A stretch of DNA of 64,000 bases from NCBI RefSeq assembly GCF_044324785.1, contig NZ_CP172127.1; one strand, 5' to 3'. The notes below the pieces were generated by a model. It was not told the origin of the DNA. It saw only the letters and a program-made list of their open reading frames with translations, and did no database searches. How positions within the stretch are numbered: position 1 is the first letter of the stretch; the number at the start of each line of letters is the position of its first letter. Below are positions 7,607 through 35,503 of this stretch, one piece after another. This DNA is from Escherichia coli. Lineage in GTDB: Bacteria > Pseudomonadota > Gammaproteobacteria > Enterobacterales > Enterobacteriaceae. A program made the translations under genes and the position numbers.

Positions 7607-8208
7607 CGCAGGATTTAACCCAATTTCTCGCCAGCTTGCCGGAAGACGATCGCATCAAAGCGATTAATGAAATCCGCATGGCGATCCATAAGGTCAGTCC
7701 TTTTCGTGAAGAGCCGGTGGATTGTGTTTTGTGGGTGAAAAATAGCCAGCTCGTGCCGAATGATTACAATCCCAATAATGTGGCACCACCAGAGAAGAAA
7801 CTGCTGCAAAAATCCATTGAAATAGATGGCTTTACGCAACCCATTGTGGTCACGCATACAGATAAAAATGCCCTGGAAATTGTTGATGGTTTTCACCGCC
7901 ATGAAATAGGTAAAGGCTTATCATCGTTAAAATTACGCTTAAAAGGTTATTTGCCAGTAACCTGTCTGGAAGGTACACGTAATCAACGCATCGCCGCGAC
8001 TATTCGTCATAACCGCGCCCGTGGTCGCCATCAAATCACTGCCATGTCCGAAATTGTTCGTGAACTCAGCCAGTTGGGATGGGACGATCATAAAATCGGC
8101 AAAGAGCTGGGAATGGACAGCGACGAGGTGCTGCGCTTGAAACAAATTAACGGCCTGCAAGAACTGTTTGCCGACCGTCAATATTCCCGCGCCTGGACGG
8201 TTAAATAA
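7579..8208 (+). CDS. ybdM: ParB/sulfiredoxin-like domain protein YbdM (IbrB-like), 209 aa
   Basis: ORF overlaps the ybdN 3' end by 28 nt; DGFHR motif typical of ParB N-terminal-like domains. Confidence 0.88.
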   Translation: MGDTMQQRLTQDLTQFLASLPEDDRIKAINEIRMAIHKVSPFREEPVDCVLWVKNSQLVPNDYNPNNVAPPEKKLLQKSIEIDGFTQPIVVTHTDKNALEIVDGFHRHEIGKGLSSLKLRLKGYLPVTCLEGTRNQRIAATIRHNRARGRHQITAMSEIVRELSQLGWDDHKIGKELGMDSDEVLRLKQINGLQELFADRQYSRAWTVK

Positions 8209-32544: not shown

Positions 32545-33165
32545 ATGAAAACTACGCATACCGCCCTCCCCTTTGCCGGACATACGCTGCATTTTGTTGA
32601 GTTCGATCCGGCGAGTTTTCGCGAGCAGGATTTACTCTGGCTGCCACACTACGCACAACTGCAACACGCTGGACGTAAACGTAAAACAGAGCATTTAGCT
32701 GGACGAATCGCTGCTGTTTATGCCTTGCGGGAATATGGCTATAAATATGTGCCCGCTATCGGCGAGCTACGCCAACCTGTGTGGCCTGCGGAGGTATACG
32801 GCAGTATTAGCCACTGCGGGACTACGGCATTAGCCGTGGTATCTCGTCAACCGATTGGCATTGATATCGAAGAGATTTTCTCTGTACAAACCGCAAGAGA
32901 ATTGACAGACAACATTATTACACCAGCAGAACACGAGCGACTCGCAGAATGCGGTTTAACCTTTTCTCTGGCGCTAACACTGGCATTTTCCGCCAAAGAG
33001 AGCGCATTTAAGGCATCGGAGAGACAAACTGATGCAGGATTTCTGGATTATCAGATAATTAGCTGGAATAAACAGCAGATCATCATTCGACTAGAGGATG
33101 AGCAGTTTGCTGTGCACTGGCAGATAAAAGAAAAAATAGTCATAACGCTGTGCCAACACGATTAA
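32545..33165 (+). CDS. entD: Phosphopantetheinyl transferase EntD, 206 aa
   Basis: Full ORF; recognised EntD sequence with a few substitutions relative to my recollection of K-12. Confidence 0.92.
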   Translation: MKTTHTALPFAGHTLHFVEFDPASFREQDLLWLPHYAQLQHAGRKRKTEHLAGRIAAVYALREYGYKYVPAIGELRQPVWPAEVYGSISHCGTTALAVVSRQPIGIDIEEIFSVQTARELTDNIITPAEHERLAECGLTFSLALTLAFSAKESAFKASERQTDAGFLDYQIISWNKQQIIIRLEDEQFAVHWQIKEKIVITLCQHD

Positions 33166-33185
33166 TTGACGACATCTGGTACGAT

Positions 33186-33687
33186 TCGCCCGCAGCCATC
33201 ACCGACCACGGGCGAAAGTGTAAAGCAGGTGCCTTACCACCCTGACCTGACAACCGGATATGCGGGGATTACTCCCCGCACAACGGCTACTTCTTCGGTT
33301 CGTAAGCGAGAACAGCCTTAAACTCAATATTACGTTCCTTCACCGTAAACTCACACAGCGAGTCTCCGACCAGAAGCGTAAATCCCAGTACCGTCAAACA
33401 CAGCACTATGACTGCCACAAGGGCATATTTCGTCAGCATGTTTATATTGCCTCCATGCGAAGAAGGGACTACCATCCAAATTGTCTGGTTTGGAGTGGCA
33501 GCCCCAGGGTTGATAGAAATATCTCCTGGGGCTTCATCTTTCCAGACCTCAGAGTAAACCTGAAACCGGAAAGCTTCAGGCACCCGCCGTTATCTTACCC
33601 TTCCTTAGCAAAATATCTGTTTATTTATACAGTGAGTCCTGTTTCGGACTTCTGTCGGCAAAACTCATCATTGCTCTTAAAACGAAA
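33186..33687. repeat. hok/sok-type toxin-antitoxin locus, tandem unit 1 (about 502 bp)
   Basis: Direct repeat of the following unit at a 502-bp offset, near-identical. Confidence 0.85.
33287..33439 (-). CDS. hokE: Hok-family membrane toxin (HokE-like), 50 aa, copy 1
   Basis: [50 protein letters not shown] at the C-terminus of ORF-track frame 33287..33583. Confidence 0.85.
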
Positions 33688-34165
33688 TCGCCCGCAGCCA
33701 TTGCTGACCGCGGGCGAAAGTGTAAAACAGGTGCCTTACCACCCTAACCTGACAACCGGATATGCGGGGATTACTCCCCGCACAACGGCTACTTCTTCGG
33801 TTCGTAAGCGAGAACAGCCTTAAACTCAATATTACGTTCCTTCACCGTAAACTCACACAGCGAGTCTCCGACCAGAAGCGTAAATCCCAGCACCGTCAAA
33901 CACAGCACTATGACTGCCGCAAGGGCATATTTCGTCAGCATGTTTATATTGCCTCCATGCGAAGAAGGGACTACCATCCAAATTGTTTGGGTTTGGAGTG
34001 GCAGCCCCAGGGTTGATAGAAATATCGTCCTGGGGCTTCATCTTTCCAGACCTCAGAGTAAACCTGAAACCGGAAAGCTTCAGACACCCGCCGTTATCTT
34101 ACCCTTCCTTAGCAAAATAGCTGTTTATTTATACAGTAAGTCCTGTTTCGGACTTCTCAATCCTC
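33688..34165. repeat. hok/sok-type toxin-antitoxin locus, tandem unit 2
   Basis: Second copy of the about 500-bp unit; diverges from unit 1 after about 34163. Confidence 0.85.
33789..33941 (-). CDS. hokE: Hok-family membrane toxin, 50 aa, copy 2 (V8A relative to copy 1)
   Basis: [50 protein letters not shown] within ORF-track frame 33789..33977. Confidence 0.8.
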
Positions 34166-34375
34166 ATTTGATCAACTGAAGCTGAACCCGTTTTTTTCTG
34201 CATGCCTCAATCGTCAAAATTCTTCGCCACCAGTCCGCACTGCCATAACTTGTCATATTGCAAAATGTAGCCAATTTGCTTCAGTCACCATCACCAAAAA
34301 AAAGAAACATTCCAGAACTTCCGCATCTCGCCCAGTCGCTCCCACTTCTATACTGAATAGAAAACGCCAACATAA

Positions 34376-35503
<1,128 letters not shown>

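Follow-up and report, generated by a model that had tools for sequence, protein, structure and literature searches.

A tandem pair of hokE/sokE units between entD and ybdK: a probably old, copy-number-polymorphic type I toxin-antitoxin array in Escherichia

Background

Among the closest described systems to the locus presented here is hok/sok (parB) of plasmid R1, which combines a toxin of the Hok/Gef type, a reading frame mok that overlaps hok, and an antisense RNA, Sok, made up of a tail and a hairpin. The R1 hok mRNA is kept silent by a fold-back known as the tac-fbi pairing, and stop codons in mok upstream of the hok start abolish the translation of Hok. In R1 the start codons of mok and hok are about 60 nt apart.

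The chromosomal relative in Escherichia coli K-12, hokE/sokE (b4415/b4835), lies between entD and ybdK and consists of a single unit, in which IS186B begins 19 nt after the hokE stop codon and thereby cuts off the 3' fold-back element. The curated K-12 record thus agrees with the original prediction for the DNA studied here, which had given that strain one hokE with an adjoining IS186. The mok frame of K-12 is fused in frame to hok and comprises 83 codons, an arrangement referred to below as type B.

Tandem copies of such loci have been described before. According to a 2025-26 preprint (10.1101/2025.08.07.668861), 10% of Hok genes are found in 'islets' of two to six homologs less than 2 kb apart that stem from local duplication, and in Escherichia 13.5% of the chromosomal hok genes are in islets; the passage that cites Fozo et al. 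2010 refers to tandem type I toxin-antitoxin loci. The preprint analysed Hok coding sequences only, and the frame of mok and the differences among Sok RNAs lie outside its scope. The same source describes A-to-I editing of hokE mRNA that leads to Cys46, and lists HokE among control peptides that were earlier found toxic on overexpression. As cited there, Pedersen and Gerdes 1999 found no post-segregational killing by the chromosomal hokA, hokB and hokC, and suggested that these loci are inactive.

Here I describe the hokE region of an E. coli chromosome within a window of 64 kb, this being the whole stretch of DNA that was analysed, and compare its two units with each other, with the systems above and with the same locus in other complete genomes.

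Results and Discussion

Layout of the array

The gap between entD (32545-33165, plus strand) and ybdK (34385-35503, plus strand) holds two head-to-tail hokE/sokE units of about 470 bp each on the minus strand, of which the entD-proximal unit 1 has a repeat core of 468 nt (33186-33653) and the ybdK-proximal unit 2 one of 470 nt (33688-34157). Between them is a junction of 34 bp (33654-33687) that lies outside the repeat cores and is missing from single-copy loci. The two units are 97.0% identical over 470 nt by blastn, and the direct repeats that make them up run from 33186-33485 to 33688-33987 (300 nt, 97%), from 33487-33523 to 33990-34026 (100%) and from 33524-33653 to 34028-34157 (98%), a similarity far above chance. 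In a pairwise alignment they differ at 14 positions, comprising substitutions and two 1-bp indels. Tandem Repeats Finder reported no repeat in the region, because the period of the array, 502-504 bp, exceeds the 500-nt maximum of that program.

These results confirm the near-identical units of about 500 bp that the original prediction had placed head-to-tail between entD and ybdK, with coordinates that are correct to about 8 nt. Its statement that the window is free of IS186 holds as well, as no copy was found by blastn in the whole 64 kb with K-12 IS186B as the query. The synteny of entD and ybdK is the same in K-12, in strain N3 and in 20 further strains, and is also seen in other Escherichia species wherever the flanks are available.

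The Hok proteins

As had been predicted, both units encode a Hok protein of 50 aa on the minus strand, and the two proteins differ by V8A. The hok gene of unit 1 (33287-33439) carries V8 and its product equals WP_000956465.1 as annotated in N3, while that of unit 2 (33789-33941) carries A8 and equals both WP_000956455.1, found in unit 2 of N3, and the HokE of K-12. Apart from this codon, the two genes differ at one synonymous site. The Pfam model PF01848 (HOK_GEF) is matched over its entire length (model positions 1-42 of 42, E 2.5e-8); the NCBIfam models for HokA and for the Hok family give E-values from 1e-10 to 1e-13, with scores under the curated cut-offs (49 vs 89 bits and 40 vs 73 bits, respectively). 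Both genes have kept C29 and Y46, the latter as the codon UAC in a UACG context. When 50 units were compared, hok was intact in every one of them, with a pN/pS of about 0.12.

With hok genes 502 bp apart and proteins that differ at one of 50 residues, the pair falls under the definition of a Hok islet given in the preprint, which asks for at least two hok homologs within 2 kb that belong to the same sequence cluster, and nothing essential sets it apart from the islets and tandem type I loci already reported.

The hok mRNAs

For unit 1, the full-length hok mRNA is predicted to measure 403 nt (33186-33588, minus strand), and its 5' end, GGCGGGUGCC at 33588, was placed by homology to position 1 of the Rfam model RF01794. 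The corresponding transcript of unit 2 is predicted at 405 nt (33688-34092, minus strand). In the minimum free energy folds of these transcripts, whose ends are inferred, nucleotides 1-11 pair with 355-365 in unit 1, and 2-11 with 357-366 in unit 2, so that a tac-fbi fold-back like that of R1 is predicted for both.

One base of this element is peculiar to the window: in the tac element of unit 2, nucleotide 9 of the mRNA shows a C-to-U change (34084, minus strand), which in the first alignment was unique to this unit among 22, N3 having a C there despite being 99.9% identical. The change turns a C-G pair of the fold-back into a U-G pair, and in the predicted fold the position is still paired.

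At the 3' end, the unit 1 mRNA closes with a terminal hairpin (33186-33215) with no U-tract behind it, and the unit 2 mRNA with a terminator-like hairpin (33688-33717) that, read on the minus strand from 33717 to 33688, is followed by a T-run, TTTCGTTTTA, supplied by the 34-bp junction. Because such a run stands behind the hairpin of unit 2 and none behind that of unit 1, the two hok mRNAs may differ in the efficiency of their termination. In unit 1 and in the single-copy loci aligned with it, the hairpin is followed by ATCGTACCAG, again with no U-tract.

The Sok antisense RNAs

Both units exceed the gathering threshold of the Rfam family RF01794, named 'sok' (83.7 and 77.9 bits vs 59). The matches, at 33431-33585 and 33933-34089, have a length of 155-157 nt and extend on the hok-sense strand from the 5' end of the mRNA to the hok start, whereas the curated sokE of K-12 is an RNA of 60 nt on the opposite strand; for this reason the model (157 nt), as built, appears to describe the hok leader and not Sok.

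A scan of the region with the sigma-70 consensus gave no promoter at a threshold of at least 9 of 12 matches, and the Sok RNAs were therefore placed through their homology to K-12 sokE, by a fuzzy match to this RNA, which is encoded opposite hokE and starts 44 nt ahead of the hokE ATG. On this basis Sok-1 is a putative RNA of about 59 nt (33483-33541, plus strand) and Sok-2 one of about 61 nt (33985-34045, plus strand). Their putative promoters, both on the plus strand, would consist of TTGCCT (33447-33452) and TACCAT (33470-33475) for Sok-1, and of TTGCCT (33949-33954) and TACCAT (33972-33977) for Sok-2, with a spacer of 17 nt in either case. Each hexamer has 4 of 6 matches, and both promoters overlap the Shine-Dalgarno sequence of hok. 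Across 50 units, this segment of Sok promoter and hok Shine-Dalgarno sequence is the most conserved part, with 7% variable columns, and the mok leader covered by Sok is the most diverse (pi 0.087).

The predicted folds of both Sok RNAs show a single-stranded 5' tail (10 nt in Sok-1, 11 nt in Sok-2) and a hairpin. The tails differ between the two units, and the tail duplexes predicted across units (-15.9 and -17.7 kcal/mol) are weaker than the cognate ones (-25.6 and -24.7 kcal/mol); over the full length, however, the duplexes predicted across units are still highly stable (-112 to -115 kcal/mol).

The strand of Sok also contains an open reading frame of 89 codons (33910-34179) antisense to mok and Sok, which PGAP calls a 'hypothetical protein', and 'frameshifted' in units that bear the indels. 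I considered it as a gene and rejected it as probably a spurious call; NCBIfam gave no match for this 89-aa product, nor for the Mok peptide.

The mok leader frames

A further difference within the pair concerns mok, and is one on which the original prediction is silent. In unit 2, mok has 62 codons (type A; 33853-34041, minus strand) and overlaps hok out of frame, with its stop codon 86 nt after the hok ATG, which is the classical arrangement also found in R1. In unit 1, mok is truncated to 22 codons (type C; 33469-33537, minus strand, ATG at 33537-33535) and ends at a TAG that precedes the hok ATG by 32 nt and also lies upstream of the hok Shine-Dalgarno sequence, so that the read-through of R1 is missing there. 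The truncation results from the loss of two single bases as compared with unit 2, both inside the Sok/hok duplex. In the window the ATG codons of mok and hok are 98-100 nt apart, a longer distance than in R1. The window thus combines types C and A in two intact units, unlike the lone type B unit of K-12, with which it otherwise shares the position of the locus, the HokE sequence of unit 2 and a homologous Sok region.

Such variation is widespread. At least four states of mok occur among the 50 units, namely the classical frame of 62 codons, the hok-fused frame of 83 codons, and truncated frames of 22 and of 17 codons. These states stem from indels of 1 bp and from substitutions within the Sok/hok duplex, and the frame of mok is free to vary over the 50 units, with hok intact throughout. 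The canonical truncated allele, type C, was found in 1,119 genomes. The presence of an intact hok beside a truncated mok that is this common could mean that hokE does not depend on read-through from mok. By analogy with R1, in which a mok that stops ahead of the hok start allows no Hok to be translated but in which the distance from mok to hok is shorter, unit 1 would probably yield little if any Hok and still produce Sok, a reading to which I would give an even chance.

I also considered a rule by which every array would contain exactly one unit with a truncated mok, as a donor of Sok only. It holds for all eight arrays among the matches most similar to the window, and was rejected as a result of sampling bias, as ten evenly spread two-copy genomes do not follow it (seven combine types B and A, one A and C, and two C' and C), and as the 1,119 genomes with the canonical truncated allele compare with some 2,500 that have arrays. 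Pairs in other Escherichia species are of types B+B and C+C.

Prevalence and copy number

The locus is present in 5,415 of 5,426 complete E. coli genomes, and the inter-unit junction in 2,506 of them (46%), as judged from a probe of 101 nt (33620-33720) at a coverage of at least 80%, where a single-copy locus reaches about 66% at most. A second probe, of 44 nt and conserved in all units, was found at 7,966 places in 5,368 genomes, with one to four places per genome. Taken together, the two probes point to some 2,400 pairs and to around 90 arrays with at least three units. Records with two or three places for the junction were considered as longer arrays as well, a notion that was dropped since most are ordinary pairs with secondary partial matches. 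The annotation of RefSeq, by PGAP, reads 'hokE (x2)' at this locus, and strain 2020CK-00188 (L011, 2600-3757) has three annotated hokE units in tandem. In a scan with one genome per species, E. whittamii and Escherichia sp. MOD1-EC7003 proved to have a pair as well, and E. albertii and Escherichia sp. E1V33 one unit. Strain 98232 (L005, 2168-4171) carries IS186 between the units of its pair, with a break in the 3' UTR of unit 2 at the same position as in K-12.

The original prediction had implied that the duplication is unusual and had itself named reference genomes with the same tandem pair as their common state as the observation that would speak against it; I looked for such genomes and found them in the numbers given above, within E. 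coli as well as in other species, so that the duplication can hardly be called exceptional.

The surroundings of the locus show some variation of their own. In strain EcPF18 (L009, 1-3000), the entD side of the pair is occupied by genes for a sugar ABC transporter and an SDR oxidoreductase in place of entD and fepA, and several records, one of them labelled O25b:H4-ST131, match only from position 286 of the query onward; judging from these two observations, the left flank appears to be rearranged or to carry an insertion in some lineages. As for the region as a whole (32900-34500), an identity of 99% or more to the window is reached by only three of the 5,422 records that match, the best being N3 with 99.9%, and full-length matches are about 95-96% identical among the matches listed. 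From these sequences, either the intergenic region between entD and ybdK would show more polymorphism than is usual in E. coli, or the source strain would come from a lineage that has been sparsely sampled.

Origin and function of the pair

In a core alignment of 472 columns with 42 units, the units cluster according to allele, whatever genome they come from, and not according to genome. Unit 1 of the window shares 98.7% identity with the second unit of strains JMK, GMF065 and DA33137 as compared to 97.0% with its own neighbour, unit 2 of the window and that of N3 share 99.8%, and pairs within one genome share 93.9-97.5% (leaving out strain 98232, in which unit 2 is interrupted by IS186). One allele sits at position 1 in some strains and at position 2 in others. 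Because units group by allele, and the same allele is seen at either position, the alignment indicates that the duplication is old and that unequal crossing-over or gene conversion later rearranged the array, as opposed to its having arisen by recurrent recent duplications. A recent tandem duplication of one ancestral hokE in this strain alone, which would create a new dosage situation, might be suspected from the one unit in K-12 and many other strains and from the 97% identity of the units in the window. I consider it very improbable, as the junction recurs in so many complete genomes and in other Escherichia species, as unit 1 is nearer to units of other strains than to its own neighbour, and as the two copies differ at 14 positions including two indels. 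The same 14 differences make the copies distinguishable alleles and speak against an artefact of assembly, such as a mis-expanded repeat, against which the original prediction had cautioned; with the identical arrangement in the complete genome of N3 (99.9%), and the same arrangement in thousands of complete assemblies, this suspicion can be dismissed for all practical purposes.

The region is thus best explained, with a probability that I put at about 0.9, as an old two-unit hokE/sokE type I toxin-antitoxin array that is polymorphic in copy number, from one to four, in the entD-ybdK gap of Escherichia. Each unit would be self-contained, the minus strand giving a hok mRNA about 400 nt long and the plus strand a Sok RNA about 60 nt long. 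The 5' end of the mRNA, which carries the mok leader frame and the 50-aa Hok membrane toxin, would fold back on its 3' end and so be translationally silent, and Sok, expressed from a promoter overlapping the hok Shine-Dalgarno sequence, would pair with the region of the mok start. Unit 2 would then be the canonical one, with a mok that reads through the hok start, and unit 1 the one in which mok ends before it, the two going back to an ancient local duplication that was later reshuffled. The original prediction raised the question of dosage balance between toxin mRNA and antisense RNA; since each unit brings along its own Sok gene and promoter, the ratio of toxin to antitoxin genes stays 1:1, and the matter is largely moot.

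As the chromosomal hok loci in the cited work gave no post-segregational killing, both units may be functionally quiet. It is possible, though doubtful, that they are mere relics devoid of present toxin-antitoxin activity, in which copy number and the variation of mok are neutral. The result for hokA, hokB and hokC, as reported from Pedersen and Gerdes 1999 by the preprint, would fit this, as would the free variation of the mok frame, with both units truncated in two of the sampled E. coli strains and in Escherichia sp. MOD1-EC7003, and the fact that K-12 tolerates IS186 in the 3' UTR. Relics would not be expected to show an intact hok in 50 of 50 units with a pN/pS of 0.12, however, nor to have the Sok promoter and hok Shine-Dalgarno sequence as their most conserved segment; the tac-fbi pairing is likewise kept, the one private change in the tac element of window unit 2 being compatible with a wobble pair, and HokE is listed by the preprint as toxic on overexpression (10.1101/2025.08.07.668861). 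The opposite possibility, that the units have become specialised, appears unlikely to me. Under this model, the polymorphism of the mok frame and the divergent Sok tails would tune which units translate Hok and which serve as dedicated donors of Sok, and would make the pairs partly orthogonal. The mok stop ahead of the hok Shine-Dalgarno sequence in unit 1, the weaker tail duplexes predicted across units and the diversity of the leader covered by Sok all point in this direction, but the ten unbiased two-copy genomes reveal no rule in their combinations of mok types, and the full-length duplexes across units are still predicted to be highly stable, with the energies given above.

Conclusion

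The tandem hokE pair is of an already known kind and already catalogued in annotation. As a discovery it carries little weight, for annotation shows it in about 46% of the complete E. coli genomes, and it agrees with the Hok islets already published; the only material that is mildly new is the polymorphism of mok frames and Sok tails between units. The consequences are practical ones. Copies that are 94-97% identical may be collapsed in short-read assemblies, and K-12 serves poorly as a reference for the hokE locus, as its only unit is disrupted by IS186. Work on the function of hokE, on the dosage of Sok and on persistence in natural isolates must allow for one to four units with differing mok frames.
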